In this document: in pieces, positions 23,929 to 32,545 of the stretch | Position numbering within the stretch: position 1 is the stretch's first letter | How the letters are laid out: each line of letters starts with the position of its first letter | Assembly: GCA_046716885.1 (NCBI GenBank) | Contig: JBKJWL010000054.1 | Location: 8,708 to 72,707 of the forward strand | Direction: 5' to 3' | Origin: Thermoanaerobaculia bacterium | Lineage (GTDB): Bacteria; Acidobacteriota; Thermoanaerobaculia; UBA5066; Gp7-AA6 | DNA: 64,000 nucleotides | The notes under the pieces: generated by a model | The model's input: only the letters and a program-made list of their open reading frames with translations | Told to the model about the DNA's origin: nothing | Databases searched by the model: none | Made by a program: the position numbers and the translations under genes

Positions 23929-25884
23929 ATGGCCAGCGCCCGCCCCATTCGACGACCCCGCTCCGCCGTCTCAGCCCGGCCGCGCCGCCCTCAGCGTCAG
24001 CGCTTCCACGAGGCGGCGAGCCTCTACGGGATCCCGAACTGGGGCAAGGGATTCTTCCACGTCTCCGAGGACGGGGATCTCGTCGTGCGGCCCACCCGCG
24101 AGGCGGGGCGGAGCGTGTCGCTCAAGCAGATCGTGGACGAGGCCGCGGCGCGCGGCATCGCGACGCCCCTGGTGATCCGCTTCCCGCAGATCCTGTCGAC
24201 CGCCGTCGCGAACCTGAACGACGCCTTCGCCCGCGCCATCGACGAGTACGGCTACGGCAACGTCTTCCGCGGCGTCTTCCCGATCAAGGTCAACCAGAAG
24301 CGCGTCGTCGTGGACCACATCGTCGCGGCCGGGCACCGGTACGGTTACGGCCTCGAGGCCGGCTCCAAGCCCGAGCTCCTTGCGGCGATCGCCGCGGACC
24401 TCGGCCCCGAGTGCCTCATCACGTGTAACGGCTACAAGGACGACACCTTCGTGCGCATGGCCTTGAACGCCGTCCGGATGAAGAAGAAGGTCGTGCTGAT
24501 CCTCGAGAAAGTCTCCGAGCTCGACCGGATCCTCTCGGTCGCAAAGGCGCGGGGCGTCCGGCCGCTCATCGGAATGCGCGCCAAGCTCTACGCCCGCGGG
24601 TCCGGGAAGTGGGCCAAGTCGGGCGGCGAGGCGGCCAAGTTCGGCCTGACGACTCCCGAGATGCTCGAGACCGTGAAGATCCTCAAGTCGAAGAAGATGC
24701 TCGACTGCATGGTCATGCTGCATTTCCACATCGGGTCGCAGATCACCGACATCCGCAAGATCAAGGACGCGATCCGCGAAGCCGGGCGCGTGTACGCGAA
24801 GCTGCGCGCCGAGGGTGTGCCGATCCAGTACCTGAACCTCGGCGGCGGCCTCGGGGTGGACTACGACGGCTCGAAGACCGCCTTCGAGTCGTCCATGAAC
24901 TACTCGGTTCAGGAGTACGCCAACGACGTCGTGTACACCGTCAAGCAGATCTGCGACGAGGAGAAGGTGCCGGCGCCCGTGCTGGTGACCGAGTCGGGCC
25001 GCGCCGTGACCGCCTATCACTCCGTCTTCGTGACCAACGTGCTCGACGTCGCCGACCGGATCGAGCAGGGCCGCCGCGTGGACGTCGGGGCGGGCGACCC
25101 CAACGTCCTCCAGGAGCTCGCGTCCATCTACGAGACGGTCAATGCCAAGACGATCCGCGAGAGCTACCACGACGCCCTCCAGTACAAGGAGGAGCTCTTC
25201 ACGCTATTCAACCTCGGGCACCTGTCCCTGGAGGACCGTTCGCGGGGGGAGATCCTCTTCTGGCAGATCTGCGAGAAGATCCACAAGGACCTGAAGACTC
25301 TGAAGGAGATTCCCGAGGAGTTCGAGGACATGGAGACGACGCTCGCCGACAAGTACGTCCTGAACTTCTCGGTCTTTCAGTCCCTTCCGGACGTCTGGGC
25401 GATCGACCAGCTCTTCCCCGTCCTGCCGATCCACCGGCTCGACGAGCGGCCCGGGGAGCTCGGCACGCTCGTCGACATCACGTGCGACTCGGACGGGAAG
25501 ATCGAGAAGTTCATCGACCTGCGCGACATCAAGGAGACGCTGCCGCTGCACGCGCTGAAGGACGGCGAGCCGTACTACATCGGGGTCTGCCTCATGGGCG
25601 CCTACCAGGACGTGCTCGGCGACCTGCACAACCTGTTCGGAGAGGCGCACGAAGTCATCGTCACCGTCGACGAGAAGGGGCGAGGGCACATCGACGACGT
25701 GCTTCCGGGCGAATCCTGCGAACGGGTGCTCGAGTACATGAACTATGACCGGACCGGGATTCTCGACTCGATCGGGCGCCAGCTCGCCCGCGTGGCCGGC
25801 AGGCCGCTGAAGAAGGACGAAGCGCGCTCGATCTACAAGGAGTTCGAGGAGGTCTTCCCGCGCTACACATACCTGGAGCGCTGA
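23929..25884 (+). CDS. speA: biosynthetic arginine decarboxylase
   Basis: FPIKVNQ, LEAGSKPE, KFGL, HFHIGSQ, GGGLGVDYDG, TESGR, ITCDSDG. Confidence 0.96.
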   Translation: MASARPIRRPRSAVSARPRRPQRQRFHEAASLYGIPNWGKGFFHVSEDGDLVVRPTREAGRSVSLKQIVDEAAARGIATPLVIRFPQILSTAVANLNDAFARAIDEYGYGNVFRGVFPIKVNQKRVVVDHIVAAGHRYGYGLEAGSKPELLAAIAADLGPECLITCNGYKDDTFVRMALNAVRMKKKVVLILEKVSELDRILSVAKARGVRPLIGMRAKLYARGSGKWAKSGGEAAKFGLTTPEMLETVKILKSKKMLDCMVMLHFHIGSQITDIRKIKDAIREAGRVYAKLRAEGVPIQYLNLGGGLGVDYDGSKTAFESSMNYSVQEYANDVVYTVKQICDEEKVPAPVLVTESGRAVTAYHSVFVTNVLDVADRIEQGRRVDVGAGDPNVLQELASIYETVNAKTIRESYHDALQYKEELFTLFNLGHLSLEDRSRGEILFWQICEKIHKDLKTLKEIPEEFEDMETTLADKYVLNFSVFQSLPDVWAIDQLFPVLPIHRLDERPGELGTLVDITCDSDGKIEKFIDLRDIKETLPLHALKDGEPYYIGVCLMGAYQDVLGDLHNLFGEAHEVIVTVDEKGRGHIDDVLPGESCERVLEYMNYDRTGILDSIGRQLARVAGRPLKKDEARSIYKEFEEVFPRYTYLER

Positions 25885-26981
25885 CGAGGATTCGGATTTC
25901 GAAGTTTGGATCTCGGAGTCTCTTGCTGGCAGCCTTGCTGCCAGTCACTGCGGGCGCTGCGGTCCCGCCGGCCCCGCCTGCACGGGAGCTCGTCGTCGGC
26001 GTCTACGAGGCGCCCCCGTGGGCGATGAAGGCGAGAGACGGAGCGTGGCGCGGCCTCACCGTCGACCTCTGGAAGGAGGTAGCCGCGGATTTGAGCCTCC
26101 CCTATCGCTTCGTTGAGGCCCCGCCCAACGCCATCCTCGACGCCGTGAGCCAGGGCCGCATGGACCTTTCCGCCGGCCCCTTCGCCGCGACGATCGAGCG
26201 CGAGCAACTGCTGGATTTCACGCACGCGTACATCGTCTCGGGCGTCGGTGTCGCGGTGCGCCGCAGGGCCGACGAGGATCGCTGGCTCGCGGTGGTCGAG
26301 GCGCTCTCGACGCCGACGGCCCTGCGCCTGTACGTCGCGGTCGCGGTGCTGATGTTCCTGGCGGGCGCGGCCCTGTGGCTTCTCGAGCGCCGGCGCAACG
26401 CCATGTTCTCCGGCTCGACCGCACGGGGCCTCGGCTCCGGATTCTGGTGGGCCGGCGTGACGACCGTCGGCGTGGGGTACGGCGACAAAGTGCCGATCAC
26501 GTTTTGGGGCCGGCTGATGGCCCTTCTCTGGATGTTCATCAGCCTGATCCTCGTCACATCGTTGACCGCGTTCGTGGCCGCTCGCCTGGCGCTCGCCGAG
26601 TTCGGCGAGATCCGCGGCGTGGCAAGCCTGAGAAACGCCGTCTCGGCCGGCGTCGAGGGCTCGGCCGCGACCGATTTTCTGCGGCGGGAGAAGATCCCGC
26701 ACCGGCTCTATGCCAGCGGCGCCGAGGCGCTCGCAGCACTCTCGGCTGGAGAAGTCAAGGCGGTGGTCTACAACGGAGCGGTGCTGCGGTACTACGCCGA
26801 GCGCGATCCGGGGAAGCTCATCGAGGTGCTGCCGGGAACCCCCGAGGCGATGTCTTACGCCTTCCCCCTGCCGGACGGGAGCCCCCTGCGCGGCCCGATC
26901 AACGCCGCGCTGCGCCGCGCGATGGCGGAGGCGCACTGGCGCGACCTCGAGGACAGGTACCTCGGCGGCGAGGTCCCATAG
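25881..26981 (+). CDS. GluR0-like ligand-gated K+ channel (solute-binding domain split by pore)
   Basis: SBP_bac_3 halves flank TM-pore-TM with TTVGVGYGD filter. Start is probably CTG 25881; TTG 25923 is the alternative. Confidence 0.85.
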   Translation: MTRIRISKFGSRSLLLAALLPVTAGAAVPPAPPARELVVGVYEAPPWAMKARDGAWRGLTVDLWKEVAADLSLPYRFVEAPPNAILDAVSQGRMDLSAGPFAATIEREQLLDFTHAYIVSGVGVAVRRRADEDRWLAVVEALSTPTALRLYVAVAVLMFLAGAALWLLERRRNAMFSGSTARGLGSGFWWAGVTTVGVGYGDKVPITFWGRLMALLWMFISLILVTSLTAFVAARLALAEFGEIRGVASLRNAVSAGVEGSAATDFLRREKIPHRLYASGAEALAALSAGEVKAVVYNGAVLRYYAERDPGKLIEVLPGTPEAMSYAFPLPDGSPLRGPINAALRRAMAEAHWRDLEDRYLGGEVP

Positions 26982-26999: not shown

Positions 27000-27345
27000 T
27001 CATTCCAACAGGAACTCCTTCATGAACAGGACCGCCGCGTAGCACTGGAAATCGCGGTTGGATTTCTTGGCGAAGCCGTGGCCCTCGTCCTTCGCCATGA
27101 GGTACCAGACCCGCGTGCCGACGCCGCGAATCTTCTCGAGCATCTGCACGGACTCGGAAAGCGGCACGCGGGGATCGTTCGCGCCCTGGATGACGAAGAG
27201 CGGCTTCTTGATCCTCTCGGCGTTGTTCAGCGGCGCGGTTTTCTCCAGGAACTGGCGCATCTTCGGGTCGCGCTCGTCGCCGTACTCCGCCCGGCGCAGG
27301 TCCCGCCGGTATCCGGACGTGTTCTCGAGAAACGTCACGAAAGAC
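27000..27345 (-). pseudogene. C-terminal fragment of an S9 prolyl oligopeptidase-family peptidase
   Basis: FVTFLENT..YRR.LR.AEYGD, QGANDPRVP, DEGHGF present; no GxSxG, propeller or good start. Confidence 0.75.
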
Positions 27346-27412
27346 CTCGACGACGAAGAGGTCGCCACCGATTACGCAGCGTGCAGCGGAAAGTTCCCCA
27401 GCGGCGGCCCGA

Positions 27413-28483
27413 TCAGCGCGGCCCTGGAATGGACCAGTTGCCCACCGGGTAGAGCGTCGGGCCGACGGTGTGACAGTCGTCCGCGTCGCCGCCTGTATGC
27501 AGATTGCCGGCCCGGTACCACACGACCACGTCGGGCGAGGTCGTCTCCCCGCTTACGAAGCCGTTGATCTTGATGGCGCAAGCAGGCCCGCTCTGGCCCT
27601 GATCGTCGATCTCGGCCCCCGCCTTGTAGCGCAAAAGCCAGACGTCTCCGACCGAGAACGTGTCGGCTGGAAGGTCCGTCTCCGGTCCCGGCACGATCCG
27701 ATAGCCGCGGTGCGTGCCCGAGTCCACCACCGACCAGGCTATTCCCGGCTGACTCGCTCGGCGCATGGCCTCGGTCGGAAGTACGACGATCGGCGGGCGC
27801 GTACGGCCGCGTCCACCGCCCGAGCCCGGCGCGGGACCCTCCGTGACGATGTCGTTGGCGGAACCGTCCACGTCGAAGTCGAAGCGCCAGTAGGCGTGGT
27901 GGCGGTGAGCATAAGCGACGCACGGGTCGCTCACGGCGGCGTACCCGAAGAAAGGCTCGATCCGCCCGTCGAGATGAAAGGTCCACTTCATGAGGTAGCG
28001 GTACCAACCGGCTTCTGTCTGCGTCGTCAGGATCAATCGGTCCGCAAGCTTCTCGGCGGCCACGCCCTCGAAGCTGCCGACGTCGCCCCCGGAGCCTCCC
28101 GCCTCACAGACGGTCACGGGAGGAACAGTAGGTTCCGCGTAGCCGGGCGAGATCACGTTGTCCGCCTGAAAAACGACCTCCTGATCCATCCAATCGCGGT
28201 AGCACGGGCCGCATCCGGCCTCGTAATTCACGTTGAGGATCGGCACATGCGCCCGCTTCATCACGAGGTAGCCGTTGTAATAGACGTTGCGGATTTCCAG
28301 GCCCGATCCATTCGGGCCGCTGCTGTTGGCGGGCCGCATCCAGCAGAACTGCCACACAGGGTCCGCGGTGGGCCAGGACATCAGTATCTCGGTCGTGCCG
28401 TTGCACGCCGGCTGAGCAGCGCATGGCGCCGCGATCGCGGCGGCGGCGAGGAGGAGACCACCGAGACGGCTGCGCGCGCTCAT
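27413..28483 (-). CDS. secreted copper amine oxidase catalytic-domain-like protein
   Basis: GLEIRNVYY, YRD, GWYRY..KW.F..DG.I, HRHHAYWRFDFDVDG, DVVVWYRAGNLH align by eye to CAO domain D4. Confidence 0.65.
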   Translation of the reverse strand: MSARSRLGGLLLAAAAIAAPCAAQPACNGTTEILMSWPTADPVWQFCWMRPANSSGPNGSGLEIRNVYYNGYLVMKRAHVPILNVNYEAGCGPCYRDWMDQEVVFQADNVISPGYAEPTVPPVTVCEAGGSGGDVGSFEGVAAEKLADRLILTTQTEAGWYRYLMKWTFHLDGRIEPFFGYAAVSDPCVAYAHRHHAYWRFDFDVDGSANDIVTEGPAPGSGGGRGRTRPPIVVLPTEAMRRASQPGIAWSVVDSGTHRGYRIVPGPETDLPADTFSVGDVWLLRYKAGAEIDDQGQSGPACAIKINGFVSGETTSPDVVVWYRAGNLHTGGDADDCHTVGPTLYPVGNWSIPGPR

Positions 28484-29013
28484 CGACTCGCCCTCTCGGA
28501 ACCCGGTGTGTAGGCTCGGTACACAGTCTCGCGCTTGACGAGATCGACGACGACCCACCGGATCAGCCCCACTCGGTCCGGCGAAATCAGTTGGATCTGG
28601 ACGCACCGGCTTCCCGGGCCACAGCGCTCACCTCGCCCTTCTTCGAGCGCGAAGCCGCCCTCGAAGATCGCGGATCGTCTCGACGCGATTCGGTCGAGCT
28701 CGGGATCCGCGTGCACCACAGCCAACGCTTCGGTTAATTCCTCCCGGGAGGGTCTCGGCATGTTCTGCGTGATCTTCCGGCTTCCGGTGAGCTCGCCGTC
28801 CAGGGTGTAGTAGTTCTCGCGGGCGACTCCCAGCCCGTAGTCGAAGACGACCTCGACCCGCCGGGGGAACTCGCGGCCCCCCGCCTTGATGGTCTCCTCC
28901 CAGGTCCGGAGCAGGCGCACGGGCCGCGAGGTCCGGGTGACGGTCGCCGCCAGGGCGACGGCGGCCGGCACGACGGCCGCCAGAACCAGAAATGCCGGGG
29001 CGATTCTGCGCAT
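28480..29013 (-). CDS. secreted protein resembling copper amine oxidase N2/N3 domains
   Basis: Signal peptide; PRPSREELTEALAVVHADPEL and VVVDL motifs; ATGA overlap with the downstream gene. Confidence 0.55.
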   Translation of the reverse strand: MRRIAPAFLVLAAVVPAAVALAATVTRTSRPVRLLRTWEETIKAGGREFPRRVEVVFDYGLGVARENYYTLDGELTGSRKITQNMPRPSREELTEALAVVHADPELDRIASRRSAIFEGGFALEEGRGERCGPGSRCVQIQLISPDRVGLIRWVVVDLVKRETVYRAYTPGSERASR

Positions 29014-29069
29014 GGGCACCGTCCTTGTCGAGAGTAGGGGGGCATCGTAGCAAAGATGGCCCCCCGGGG

Positions 29070-30749
29070 CTACGGTGTGGCGGCCGCCTCCGCCAGGGCG
29101 CGTTTGCGGGCCGCTTCGAACTCGTCTCCCTTGTTCCACTCCGGCAGGGTCGGGGCGTTTGCGACGGCCACCCCGAGAGAGAAGCAAAGCTGCGCGTCCT
29201 CAACCGCGCCGGAGAGATCCCAGCTGTCCCGGTACTGGTCGGAGGGCTGGTGATAGTCCGTCCGGGTGTAGAGGTCGATCTGCTCGCGGCCCCAGCCAGC
29301 CGGCTTCCCGATCACCTCGGTCCCGGACTTGAGGTAGGCGGCCGGCACGCCGATCCTGGCGAAATTGAACTGGTCGGACCGGTAGAAGCTTCCGCGGTCG
29401 GGGAACTCGTCCGGCTTGACCGTGCGTCCCTGAGCGGCGGCGAGAGCGAGGATGTCGCGGTCGAGGCTCGATTTGCCGAGGCCGATGGCCGAGATGTCGC
29501 GGGTCTTCCCCCAGATCGCGGCCCCGTCGATATTGATGTTGGCGGCGATCCGTCCGGCCGGGACCGGCGGATGCTTCGCGAGGTACTCCGATCCGAGAAG
29601 GCCCTGCTCCTCTGCCGCCACGAACGCGAAGTAGACCGAGCGCGCAGCCGGTTTCGGCAGGTCCGCAAATGCTGCCGCGATCGCGAGGACCGCCCCCACG
29701 CCTGAGGCGTTGTCGAGCGCGCCGTTGTAGATCGCGTCGTCTCCCGGCTTGGCTCCCGTCTTCACCCCGAGGTGATCGTGGTGCGCCGTGTAGACGACGG
29801 CCTCCTTCGTGAGCTTCGGGCCGCCGCCCGCGATCACGCCGATCACGTTGGCCGACGTGGTCTTCTCGATCGTGTTGGCCATCGCGAGCGAGAGACGGAC
29901 GCCGAGAGGCACCGGGCGGAACTTGCGCGACTCGGCCGACTTCCGGAGCGCGTCGAGGTCCTTGCCGCCAAGAGCGGCGATCCGGCGGGATGCCTCCTCG
30001 GTCGCCCACCCCTGGAGCTCGAGGCGCGGCGATCCGTCGTCGGGAAGCACGAATCGCTCCCCGGACCAGGAAGTCTGCACGACCTGCCACGGATAGGCCG
30101 CCGACGGGGTCGTGTGAATGATGACGACGCCGGCCGCTCCCTTCTTTGCCGCCTGCTCGTACTTGTAGTCCCAGCGGCCGTAACGGAGCCGCGCCTTGCC
30201 GGCGAAGAGAGCGGGATCGCTCTCCGGATCGTTGTTCATTACGACGAGGACCTTGCCCTTCACGTCGGCGTCCTTGAAGTCGTCCCACCGGTGCTCCGGA
30301 GCGACGATTCCATAGCCGACGAAGACGAGCTCGGCGTCGTCGAGCCTGGCTGTCGGGTTCTGCGTGCCGGAGGTGGCGATGAAGTCGTCCGAACGCTTGA
30401 GGGTCAGGCTACGGCTCTTCGCCGTGAGGGTCAGGGTGTCGGGAACCTGGGAGGTGATCCCGATGAGCGGCACCTTCTGGTACCAGCCGCCGCCCGGCGC
30501 GCCGGGCTGAATGCCGAGGGCCTCGAGCTGCGCGGCGATGTACTCCTGGCCGAGCCGGTCCCCGCGGCTCCCGGGACCGCGCCCTTCGAGGAGGTCCGAG
30601 GCGAGGAATCGCACGTGCGCGCGGATGAGCTCCGGCGTGATCTCCGCGGCCGCCGCCTTCTCCGCGGCGCCGATGACGGCCGGAGACGCGGACGCGGCGG
30701 GCGAGACGAGCAGCGAAGAAACGGTCAGTGCGGCGGCGAGTAGGTCCAC
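29070..30749 (-). CDS. M28 family peptidase with PA domain
   Basis: LASDLLEGRGPG, AHHDHLG, NGALDNASG, AEEQGLLGS, RSD, YHQPSD. Confidence 0.93.
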   Translation of the reverse strand: MDLLAAALTVSSLLVSPAASASPAVIGAAEKAAAAEITPELIRAHVRFLASDLLEGRGPGSRGDRLGQEYIAAQLEALGIQPGAPGGGWYQKVPLIGITSQVPDTLTLTAKSRSLTLKRSDDFIATSGTQNPTARLDDAELVFVGYGIVAPEHRWDDFKDADVKGKVLVVMNNDPESDPALFAGKARLRYGRWDYKYEQAAKKGAAGVVIIHTTPSAAYPWQVVQTSWSGERFVLPDDGSPRLELQGWATEEASRRIAALGGKDLDALRKSAESRKFRPVPLGVRLSLAMANTIEKTTSANVIGVIAGGGPKLTKEAVVYTAHHDHLGVKTGAKPGDDAIYNGALDNASGVGAVLAIAAAFADLPKPAARSVYFAFVAAEEQGLLGSEYLAKHPPVPAGRIAANINIDGAAIWGKTRDISAIGLGKSSLDRDILALAAAQGRTVKPDEFPDRGSFYRSDQFNFARIGVPAAYLKSGTEVIGKPAGWGREQIDLYTRTDYHQPSDQYRDSWDLSGAVEDAQLCFSLGVAVANAPTLPEWNKGDEFEAARKRALAEAAATP

Positions 30750-30773: not shown

Positions 30774-32393
30774 TCAGGGTTTCGGTGCGGGCGCCTCGTT
30801 CTTCTGCTGTTCCTTCGGGGGCTCGTCTTTGGGCAGCGGCTTGCGCGGCATGAGGCTGTCGCGCACCGACGCCTGGTACGCGAAGGTGGCCATGACGACC
30901 GAGGCCTGCATGAGGTCGTTTTTCTGCAGGCGCTCGTAGAGGTCCATGTTCGTGTGGTGCGTGCGTGTGTCGTATTCGAGCACGTCCTGGATGAACTGGA
31001 AGCCGGGCAGGCCCGCCTCGTCGAACGACTCGTGATCGGTGCCGCCCGTGTCGTTCATCGTCACGAGGGTGGCGCCGAGGTCCTTCAACGGCGCGAGCCA
31101 GGCCTCGAAGATCGGCACGACCGCGGCGTTGTCCTCGGCATAGATGCCCCGGATCTTCCCGGTGCCGTTGTCGAGGTTGAAGTAGACCGAGAACTTCGCG
31201 TGCTCGGGTTTGATCGTCAGCGGGCCGGTGTTCTTGCGGAGGTAGAACGGCTTGTCCTTCTCTTCGGGAGTCGGTTCGGGCCGCGACGCCAAGTGCTGCG
31301 AGACGTAGGCGCGCGATCCGTAGACCCCCTGCTCTTCGCCGCTCCAGAGGCCGATCCGGATCGTGCGGCGCGGCCGCGCCCCGACGGCCTTCAGGATCCG
31401 CATCGCCTCCATGGCGACGACCGAGCCTGCACCGTTGTCGGTTGCGCCGGTGCCGCCGTGCCAGGAGTCCAGGTGCGCGCCGACCATCACGACCTCGTCC
31501 TTCCAGTCGGTGCCGGGGATCTCGGCAATCGTGTTCCACTGCATCAGGTCGTCTTCGATGAAGCGCGCCTTCACGTCCATCTCGATCTCGACGTCCACCT
31601 TGCGGTCGAGCAGGCGGGCGACGCGGCCGAAGTGCTCGGGCTCCATCGCCAGCGAGGGGAGACCCTGCGGGTCCCCCTTCTTCCACGATCCCCCGCCCTG
31701 GACGCCGAAGGTGCCGAAGTCGCCTCGGGCAGGCAGCACGATGGCGAGCGCCTTCTCCTCGGCGAAGAACTTCTCGGCCGCCTTGCGCAGTTCGCGCAGC
31801 TTCGCGAAAGCCGCGCGGTCGTAGCGCGGCGCGCGCCCCGGCATCTCGTACTCGAAGAGCTCGGCCATCGCCTTCTCGTCGTACCGCCCGGATTCCGGCT
31901 TCTCGTGGAGCTTGAGCTCGCGGGGCTCGCCGAAGAACACGATCTTGCCCGCGAGCGTCCCTTTGAGCTTCTCGAGCTCCTCCTTCGCCTTGACGTTGAC
32001 CCGGGCGGCGCTGGCGCGCACCGGGCCGTTGGTCCCCGGTGTCCAGGCCTCCGGGAGCGCGTAGAGCTGCGCCGCGTCGGGAGCGACCATGCGGATCGAG
32101 CAGGCCTCGTAGGTCCAGCCGCGCCCGAAGGGTCCCCAGCTATCCAGATGCGCGTTGGCGAGGCCCCACTCGGCGAGCCTCGACTTCGTCCACTCGTTGG
32201 CCGCCTTCATCTGGGGCGATCCCGTCAGCCGCGGCCCGATCCGATCCATCAGTTCGGACGCCGTCTCCATGACTTTGGAGTTCGTGAAACCCTCTTGACG
32301 GATTCGCGTGATCATGTCGAGGTCGACGCGCTCCTCGGAGGCCATCGGAGCGGCCAGAACCGACAGGCAGAGCAGAGCGGTGAAGCGTTTCAG
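30774..32393 (-). CDS. M28 family carboxypeptidase Q-like peptidase
   Basis: IGPRLTGS, GAHLDSW, GATDN, GEEQG, DNG.G, TDH, HHTNMD. Probable CTG start after GAGGAGG. Confidence 0.92.
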   Translation of the reverse strand: MKRFTALLCLSVLAAPMASEERVDLDMITRIRQEGFTNSKVMETASELMDRIGPRLTGSPQMKAANEWTKSRLAEWGLANAHLDSWGPFGRGWTYEACSIRMVAPDAAQLYALPEAWTPGTNGPVRASAARVNVKAKEELEKLKGTLAGKIVFFGEPRELKLHEKPESGRYDEKAMAELFEYEMPGRAPRYDRAAFAKLRELRKAAEKFFAEEKALAIVLPARGDFGTFGVQGGGSWKKGDPQGLPSLAMEPEHFGRVARLLDRKVDVEIEMDVKARFIEDDLMQWNTIAEIPGTDWKDEVVMVGAHLDSWHGGTGATDNGAGSVVAMEAMRILKAVGARPRRTIRIGLWSGEEQGVYGSRAYVSQHLASRPEPTPEEKDKPFYLRKNTGPLTIKPEHAKFSVYFNLDNGTGKIRGIYAEDNAAVVPIFEAWLAPLKDLGATLVTMNDTGGTDHESFDEAGLPGFQFIQDVLEYDTRTHHTNMDLYERLQKNDLMQASVVMATFAYQASVRDSLMPRKPLPKDEPPKEQQKNEAPAPKP

Positions 32394-32545
32394 GATATAC
32401 CTCCTCGGAGCAAAACCGCGGAACGGTACCACCCCACTCCGGAGCGGTCAACCACGGGCGGCATCCGCTCTCTCGCGCTCGCCTCCGAGGACTTTCCGGG
32501 CTGCGCTCGGGTACGATCCAATTTCCCGACAGTTGGGAGGTTGCC

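Follow-up and report, generated by a model that had tools for sequence, protein, structure and literature searches.

A predicted secreted two-subunit relative of the copper amine oxidases, with W-Y-R-Y at the place of the cofactor motif, in a Thermoanaerobaculia genome

The window that we analyzed is a 64,000-nucleotide stretch of DNA from a Thermoanaerobaculia bacterium (GenBank assembly GCA_046716885.1, contig JBKJWL010000054.1), and the subject of this report is a pair of adjacent genes on its minus strand, which we refer to as the small-subunit and large-subunit genes. That the pair is real, and that its two genes encode parts of one two-subunit relative of the copper amine oxidases (CAOs), is well supported by the comparisons described below. 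An initial annotation of the locus, made from the letters alone, had proposed a split CAO-like system with a rewired cofactor motif; the coordinates, the ATGA overlap, the tyrosine codon and the strings that it quoted are all present on the minus strand. The pair and its immediate features are as follows.

28480..29013, minus strand: small-subunit gene, 177 aa (open reading frame, ORF, with translation)
27413..28483, minus strand: large-subunit gene, 356 aa (ORF with translation)
28942..29013, minus strand: predicted small-subunit signal peptide, approximately residues 1-24 (MRR, hydrophobic run, ALA/AT; read from the sequence)
28412..28483, minus strand: predicted large-subunit signal peptide, approximately residues 1-24 (MSARSR, hydrophobic run, CAA/QP; read from the sequence)
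28480..28483, minus strand: ATGA overlap of the small-gene stop and the large-gene start (TCAT on the plus strand)

In each product a basic stretch at the N-terminus leads into a hydrophobic run and then an Ala-rich end, and we read both N-termini as predicted Sec-type signal peptides. The same regions are of low confidence in the structural models (residues 1-30 of the small protein, pLDDT 52-56; residues 1-20 of the large protein, pLDDT 66-72). The mature large protein contains 8 cysteines and the mature small protein 2, the latter in CGPGSRC. Recognizable strings in the large product are TEAGWYRY, HRHHAYWRFDFDVDG, DVVVWYRAGNLH and YRD, and in the small product PRPSREELTEALAVVHADP and VVVDL. 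The source genome, which is 97.5% complete, carries a single copy of the pair, and no canonical CAO was found in it.

The large protein is a compact, trimmed form of the D4-type catalytic beta-sandwich domain of the CAOs. It matches Pfam family PF01179 with 33 bits against a cut-off of 27 (E 3.9e-8), and because this match lies above the cut-off and phmmer pairs the motif and the histidines with those of the E. coli amine oxidase (ECAO), the resemblance is not a matter of chance. The AlphaFold2 (AF2) model of the protein (pLDDT 89.1, pTM 0.88, 40 relatives in the alignment) was compared with the PDB by Foldseek, and the matches listed are all CAOs – AGAO of Arthrobacter globiformis, ECAO, the yeast and pea enzymes, and human VAP-1 – with the best at E 4.9e-14 and a TMq of approximately 0.6. 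A profile of the large-protein family matches AGAO at E 5e-11. When aligned by hhalign to 16 canonical acidobacterial CAOs, the large-protein profile reached a probability of 98.7%, and a wider family profile one of 99.4% (E 6e-22, 303 columns); the 303 aligned columns span about 395 template columns, so that D4 is shortened here to about 330 residues. Pfam, Foldseek, the AGAO match and hhalign thus agree on the CAO kinship that had been claimed for the large protein.

The prediction that standard pipelines would call both genes hypothetical held for only one of them. The large protein is recognized: PF01179 is annotated on 120 of 120 relatives among the matches listed, the automatic name of the Atlas clusters is "putative copper amine oxidase", and, among source-named relatives otherwise called "hypothetical protein", a few carry the JGI name "Copper amine oxidase, enzyme domain". 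The source-named relatives of the small protein are called "hypothetical protein", and a Pfam family is assigned to none of 136 relatives.

In the small protein we recognize a diverged D3 (N3)-like domain; the beta strands ahead of it correspond to the end of D2. This kinship is seen through fold and profile-profile comparison only. Sequence searches of the PDB and of Pfam/NCBIfam returned chance-level matches only, and hmmscan gave no match to N2 or N3 (PF02727/PF02728) at E values up to 10. The 39 best Foldseek matches of its AF2 model (pLDDT 85) are CAO chains (best E 5e-4, TMq 0.57), and hhalign of the small-protein profile against the N-terminal region of the 16 canonical CAOs gave 95% (E 3.8e-8). 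In that region the PS-x-EE-x-x-EA...DP helix aligns to the helix that opens D3, and the strands before it to the end of D2. The motifs TSRPVRLL, PS.EE..EA, EGGF, CGPG.RC and VVDL are invariant among relatives. The small protein had been described as N2/N3-like; its N-domain nature stands, on the strength of Foldseek, hhalign and, in fused relatives, direct matches of its hidden Markov model (HMM), but what it holds is the end of D2 and D3 rather than two full N domains.

We examined the linkage of the two genes by searching a phylum sample of 301 genomes with profiles of the large and the small protein. In 12 of the 301 genomes the large protein was matched strongly and over its full length (E 3e-62 or better). 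A further 17 genomes yielded weak matches only, in open frames of 436-929 aa, and 16 loci of these weak-match genomes are CAOs of 643-708 aa with N-Y-D/E-Y. The small-protein profile matched 7 of the 301 genomes, in each case directly upstream of the large gene and on the same strand. Every genome with a D4-only gene has the small gene directly upstream (7/7, or 6/6 without the unpublished genome G024), and the other five strong-match genomes, together with a second locus of one of the seven, encode single chains of 546-1038 aa.

When one genome per species was searched with the small-protein profile, 52 loci were returned, labeled as Acidobacteriota/Thermoanaerobaculia (37), Rubricoccaceae/Rhodothermales (8), Bacteroidota/Bacteroidetes (4), Myxococcales (2) and Spirochaetales (1). 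The large gene is the next gene on the same strand in 51 of the 52, 6-129 nt past the small-protein match, and at the remaining locus the sequence ends 130 nt after the small gene. The separate encoding of N-like and catalytic domains that had been proposed is supported, and the two genes co-occur strictly. The ATGA overlap is not conserved; because 51 of the 52 loci are adjacent with inter-match gaps of 6-129 nt, the overlap is local and adjacency is the rule. Some arrangements are more elaborate. One contig of the nearest relative (loci L043 and L058) carries two small-plus-large pairs about 5 kb apart with an M28 gene between them, and genome G057 (L012 / L036) has one small gene followed by two tandem large genes, the first of which is split over two frames with an in-frame TGA, either as a broken copy or through an assembly error.

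A heteromer of the two products had also been suggested, and the modeled complex is a confident one: the small and large proteins together reached an ipSAE of 0.89, as compared with 0.10 for the best of three controls. Of 80 solved complexes 58 reached this ipSAE mark, as did 2 of 110 mismatched pairs; these counts apply only approximately here, since the alignments used for the pair were our own. The runs share at least 90% of their contacts, and both partners have a pLDDT of at least 88. On the large protein the interface comprises residues 53-59, K76, Y87, 90-93, 95-98, A158-G159-W160, 184-187, 294-299 and D318, and on the small protein W38-K43, 81-87, 118-122 (the EGGF loop) and 146-150, so that the modeled interface brings together invariant residues of both chains. 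In this model W160 packs on the small subunit, touching residue 118 beside the EGGF loop, and C91 and C188 adjoin interface residues near the site. In classical CAOs the lining of the amine channel includes residues of D3 (PMC3382800), and the model fits an active-site entrance to which both subunits contribute.

The two-gene arrangement proved to be one architecture of a deep and widespread family of proteins with W-Y-R-Y, and not a local oddity. A HMMER search over 1.84 billion cluster representatives gave 1346 matches at E<=1e-3, 726 at 1e-10 and 305 at 1e-30, which puts the W-Y-R-Y family at no fewer than 305 clusters at 50% identity; the phyla with the most Atlas clusters are Planctomycetota, Nitrospirota and Acidobacteriota. 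For counts of conservation and architecture we used the best 150 cluster representatives, mutually at most 50% identical, and, for conservation, also a set of 133 relatives of the large protein. Among the 150 representatives plus the window protein, the domain stands at the N-terminus in 73, and in 72 it follows an N-terminal extension longer than 150 residues. That extension is related to the small protein (hhalign 98.4%, E 5e-15), and the small-protein HMM matches it directly in 32 of the 151 family proteins.

We used FastTree to place 138 family domains together with 10 of the 16 canonical CAOs, leaving out 13 fragments that matched fewer than 280 profile positions. A clade of D4-only proteins (49 of 50 members; support 0.82) stands beside a sister clade with 88 members, 71 of them extended (support 0.94). 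Truncated gene calls may account for the 12 D4-only members of the sister clade, and in P0263, which falls in the split clade, a single chain contains both parts. Since the canonical outgroup consists of single chains, the history is most simply explained by one ancient gene fission. The view of the pair as an isolated, rewired curiosity must accordingly be given up: it belongs to one clade of a large W-Y-R-Y family that has a single-chain sister clade.

The uncharacterized single-chain W-Y-R-Y proteins (520-600 aa, some >1000; e.g. L007, L011 and L030) resemble the split pair in having a D4 with A-G-W-Y-R-Y, Y/F-R-D and H-x-H-H, as well as an N-terminal extension homologous to the small subunit. 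They differ in the loop, where Y-x-P-M-P-P takes the place of EGGF, and some of them, unlike the split pair, carry C-terminal P_proprotein or fn3-like domains. One such protein (L008 / L038, genome G163) is 1038 aa long and ends in fn3-like and proprotein-convertase P domains, and W-Y-R-Y representatives reach 1343 aa. Fused W-Y-R-Y proteins with fn3 or P domains are surface-display forms of the same catalytic module.

To place the active-site residues we used ECAO 727-residue numbering, which is that of the literature; it was checked on TPQ466 (TPQ, topaquinone), H524, H526 and H689 and extended by way of a canonical acidobacterial CAO. The codons concerned are listed here.

27995..28006, minus strand: W160-Y161-R162-Y163, phmmer-aligned to ECAO N465-Y466(TPQ)-D467-Y468; the Y161 codon is 28001-28003
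27899..27907, minus strand: H193-R194-H195, putative H-x-H copper pair; H193/H195 aligned to ECAO H524/H526
27497..27499, minus strand: H329, putative third copper ligand, aligned to ECAO H689
28193..28201, minus strand: Y95-R96-D97, candidate gate Tyr and catalytic base (a putative assignment)
28223..28225, minus strand: Y87, counterpart of the O4-bonding Tyr, by hhalign to the Tyr of canonical VPYGD, which is ECAO Y369

By alignment, then, the three copper histidines of the CAOs have counterparts in H193, H195 and H329, and the O4-bonding Tyr, which is strictly conserved in CAOs (ECAO Y369, AGAO Y284, HPAO Y305), has one in Y87. Lys76 had been considered for the O4-bonding position, which would have suggested a link like that of lysine tyrosylquinone (LTQ), and was dropped because ECAO numbering gives that place to Y87. 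The phmmer alignment and the conservation counts both uphold the earlier description of the site, with three histidines and the precursor Tyr kept, Asn replaced by Trp and Asp by Arg. Among the 133 relatives, Y161, R162, Y163, R96 and D97 are invariant (133 each), W160 and Y87 are found in 132, and H329 in 128. The same holds, with few exceptions, among the 150 representatives: W160 148, Y161 149, R162 139 and Y163 150 in the motif; H195 150, H193 140 (with 9 Arg) and H329 122 (with 10 gapped there and 9 chains that stop earlier) among the histidines; and Y87 147, R96 147 and D97 146. WYRY is present at 51 of the 52 genome loci. Of the cysteines, C91 occurs in 134 and C188 in 136 of the 150 representatives. 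D202, D204 and D318 align to ECAO D533, D535 and D678, are invariant or nearly so in the 133 relatives and strongly kept in the 150 representatives, and have as their ECAO counterparts what we take to be the ligands of a peripheral calcium site.

The assignment of the catalytic base is less direct. The Asp of YRD had been put forward for this role, and it is plausible there: Y/F95-R96-D97 resembles ECAO Y381-x-D383, and D97 is likely the base, as we infer from this resemblance. Profile alignments, on the other hand, put the base four residues further on, for the column of the invariant CAO base (ECAO D383, AGAO D298) holds Q101 (E or Q among relatives) and the invariant D97 lies four residues upstream; the Y/F95-R96-D97 motif itself comes after a loop that differs in length among relatives.

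Not all members of the family have the full set of histidines. The H-H-H triad at positions 193, 195 and 329 is present in 121 of the 150 representatives, at 43 of the 52 loci, and in the window protein itself. Arg is found at 193 in 9 of the 150, and in all eight of these that can be scored the His at 329 is also lost (R in 4, K in 2, T in 1 and F in 1); the ninth is truncated. Other triads among the 150 are H-H-D (8) and H-H-C (2), and among the 52 loci R-H-R occurs five times and H-H-D twice. Joint replacement of His193 and His329 was seen at L031/L077 (genome G286), L075, L082, L083, L093, L039 and L040. The R-H-R proteins arise on long branches at no fewer than three separate places in the tree (Acidobacteriota, Bacteroidota and Rubricoccaceae) and include both split and fused proteins. 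In G286, which belongs to the same genus as the source genome, an R-H-R pair occupies the same chromosomal slot and is 52% / 48% identical to the window pair, as compared with 60-86% for four flanking genes. That the two histidines disappear together favors a genuine metal site in the proteins with H-H-H, which are the majority, and the same variants show that the pocket can apparently serve without that site. In the subgroup with Asp or Cys at 329, which includes L079 and L084, R162 is often replaced by K, Q, M or Y and G159 by S or A; this subgroup may have a different metal site.

Starting from the observed homology, fold, kept residues, linkage and fused sister clade, we think there is about an even chance that the pair is a secreted two-subunit amine oxidase of the Cu/TPQ type with an altered cofactor cage and probably a different amine substrate, the chemistry of which we infer. 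Each protein would be exported by its own signal peptide, and assembly would take place outside the cytoplasm. In the modeled complex the small subunit would take the role of D3, with its invariant EGGF loop and Trp38 lying over the active-site face of its partner. In the large subunit copper would be bound through His193, His195 and His329, with Tyr161 at the topaquinone-precursor position, and copper and O2 would turn Tyr161 into a TPQ-type quinone. The enzyme would then oxidize a primary amine, giving an aldehyde, ammonia and H2O2; Asp97 is the candidate base and Tyr87 would hold the cofactor, while Trp160, Arg162 and Arg96 would reshape the cofactor pocket and its entrance. Such a pocket would fit a substrate that differs from those of the classical enzymes, perhaps an amine that is anionic or carried on a peptide.

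We favor the Cu/TPQ reading because the residues needed for TPQ are kept and because of what is reported for an AGAO variant that lacks the flanking Asn. Three His, the precursor Tyr and the O4-bonding Tyr are the residues needed for topaquinone formation according to the available text of PMC3382800. The canonical Asn sits on the TPQ ring and controls its position, and removing it in AGAO N381A gave "holo" crystal structures in which the TPQ ring was flipped and a reaction that was 160-fold slower (PMC9491219, available portion). Since N381A gave "holo" structures with TPQ, we take this to mean that the flanking Asn is dispensable for TPQ formation.

Several observations weigh against a Cu/TPQ amine oxidase. 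Relatives in which His193 and His329 are replaced by Arg or Lys (9 of the 150 representatives and 5 of the 52 loci, the same-genus ortholog among them) retain W-Y-R-Y, Y87 and R96-D97, and for that reason conservation of Tyr161 alone is no proof of a copper-made quinone. The catalytic Asp of the CAOs aligns at Q101 and not at the invariant D97. The consensus T-x-x-N-Y-D/E is not present, with W for N, R for D/E and no Thr at -4, nor is the D2-D3-D4 region a single chain, the D3-like part being a separate gene. The score of the complex may stem from the D3-D4 contact inside solved CAO chains, in which case it shows likeness and not binding. Finally, neighboring genes give no clue to the substrate at loci outside Acidobacteriota.

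The first alternative shares the two-subunit CAO fold and differs in its chemistry: Trp160, Tyr161 and Arg162 would generate or position a cofactor that is not TPQ (a quinone that is cross-linked or derived from Trp, or a Cu-tyrosyl radical site; the initial annotation had named a Tyr-Trp cross-link), or the enzyme would carry out an oxidation other than primary-amine deamination. We consider this unlikely, though deserving of real weight. W160 and R162 are about as conserved as the Tyr between them, a Trp at the place of the canonical Asn must alter the environment of the cofactor in light of what the available portion of PMC9491219 says of that Asn, C91 and C188 are well kept near the site by the interface, and the aligned position does not hold the catalytic Asp. 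Against it, every residue known to be needed for TPQ is kept, and the contact of W160 with residue 118 of the small subunit suggests a role in packing. A broader conjecture, which strikes us as distinctly unlikely, is that the whole W-Y-R-Y family makes no ordinary topaquinone: the Trp, the two Arg and the site at the interface would give a new protein-derived cofactor or a new copper-dependent oxidation acting on an anionic or peptide-bound amine of the cell envelope of soil and sediment bacteria, and the His-to-Arg variants would have a second, metal-free function.

It is more doubtful still that the pair is not a redox enzyme at all, but a secreted binding or structural protein on a CAO scaffold whose pocket (Y87, R96, D97, W160, Y161 and R162) holds a ligand without a copper-made cofactor. 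Such a protein would account for the lineages that lack two copper ligands and yet retain the whole pocket and the partner gene (R-H followed by R, K, T or F in 8 of 150 plus the truncated one, and R-H-R at 5 of the 52 loci). The window protein, however, has the full triad, as do most representatives and loci; wherever H193 is lost and position 329 can be scored, H329 is lost as well, as expected for a joint metal site; and the long branches of the R-H-R proteins and the divergence of the G286 ortholog make these variants look like a change of function after loss rather than the ancestral state. That the genes are mere neighbors, the large protein acting by itself or pairing with a second copy as classical CAOs do and the small one having some other role, is very improbable, for although the ATGA overlap is not conserved and the complex score could reflect memory of CAO structures, the genes lie side by side at 51 of the 52 loci (Acidobacteriota, Myxococcales, Spirochaetales, Rhodothermales/Rubricoccaceae and Bacteroidota), the sister clade and every canonical CAO carry the homologous domain on the same chain as D4, P0263 of the split clade joins both parts in one chain, and invariant residues of both proteins meet in the modeled interface.

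The surroundings of the pair in the window include the following features.

23929-25884, plus strand: biosynthetic-type arginine decarboxylase
25923-26981, plus strand: GluR0-like ligand-gated channel (SBP_bac_3 + Lig_chan / Ion_trans_2)
27000-27368, minus strand: S9 peptidase remnant, 122-aa ORF directly downstream of the pair, with the C-terminal part of Peptidase_S9 only (profile 115-203 of 213)
27347..27371, minus strand: terminator-like hairpin, 42 nt past the large-gene stop (pattern match only)
29070-30749, minus strand: M28 peptidase directly upstream of the pair, 56 nt from the small gene
30774-32432, minus strand: M28 peptidase, second tandem copy, upstream

The hairpin comes from a consensus scan that returned 5 sites versus 1.1 expected, and it overlaps the start of the S9-remnant ORF. 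The nearest relative (L043) has a full-length S9 gene after its pair; measured against that gene, the 122-aa ORF lacks about 528 codons and is 94% identical in the part that is kept. It is a deletion remnant. The order M28 - small - large - S9 is common in acidobacterial relatives, with M28 at 31 and S9 at 25 of the 52 loci, and the M28/S9 block is found at none of the 15 non-acidobacterial loci. Because it is confined to loci of Acidobacteriota, we read the block as inherited gene order, and a link to peptide breakdown is at most weakly hinted at. Across 13 loci of the phylum sample, nothing but the pair itself recurs beyond the same genus. The order of arginine decarboxylase and GluR0-like channel is shared with the same-genus genome. 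Pieces of 27000-29300 that are 99-100% alike occur in contigs of runs labeled freshwater sediment and soil metagenome from three studies (X1, X2 and X8), and very close strains thus occupy freshwater-sediment and soil habitats. No RNA data set is listed as containing the stretch, and the one run labeled RNA-Seq was flagged as probably DNA and gave short contigs only.

Of the characterized enzymes, AGAO and ECAO/TynA (PF01179 with PF02727/PF02728; TPQ enzymes, EC 1.4.3.21/22) are the closest to the pair. They share with it the D4 beta-sandwich fold, export from the cytoplasm (predicted here), the aligned three copper His, precursor Tyr, O4-bonding Tyr and D-x-D...D, and a D3-like domain on the active-site face (modeled here). 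They differ in being one chain, whereas the pair has two genes and a shortened D4, and in having N-Y-D/E-Y where the pair has W-Y-R-Y with no Thr at -4; invariant Arg96, Lys76 and His196 and several cysteines are extra features of the pair. Lysyl oxidase (LTQ) and LodA/GoxA (cysteine tryptophylquinone, CTQ) are likewise quinoprotein amine oxidases with self-made cofactors, and they may do the same work, that of an extracellular oxidase whose cofactor comes from residues of its own. We saw no homology to them, all significant structure and profile matches being CAOs, and LTQ enzymes are described as non-homologous to CAOs in the available text of PMC3382800. The same text describes the CAOs solved up to 2012 as homodimers of D2-D3-D4 chains with two beta-hairpin arms and the consensus Asn-Tyr-Asp/Glu. 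Our literature searches, which extended to papers but not to their supplements, found no paper on a split CAO or on the W-Y-R-Y family, and the available portion of the CAO phylogeny paper PMC12058724 contains no passage on either.

CAOs are a textbook case of a self-made cofactor, and here a deep bacterial branch breaks two of their rules at once: Trp and Arg flank the cofactor Tyr, and in one clade the domain that lines the entrance is a separate, co-inherited subunit. The natural His-to-Arg variants provide built-in controls. The family could reveal whether TPQ forms in such a setting, what the flanking residues do, and which amine these abundant soil and sediment bacteria oxidize outside the cell.

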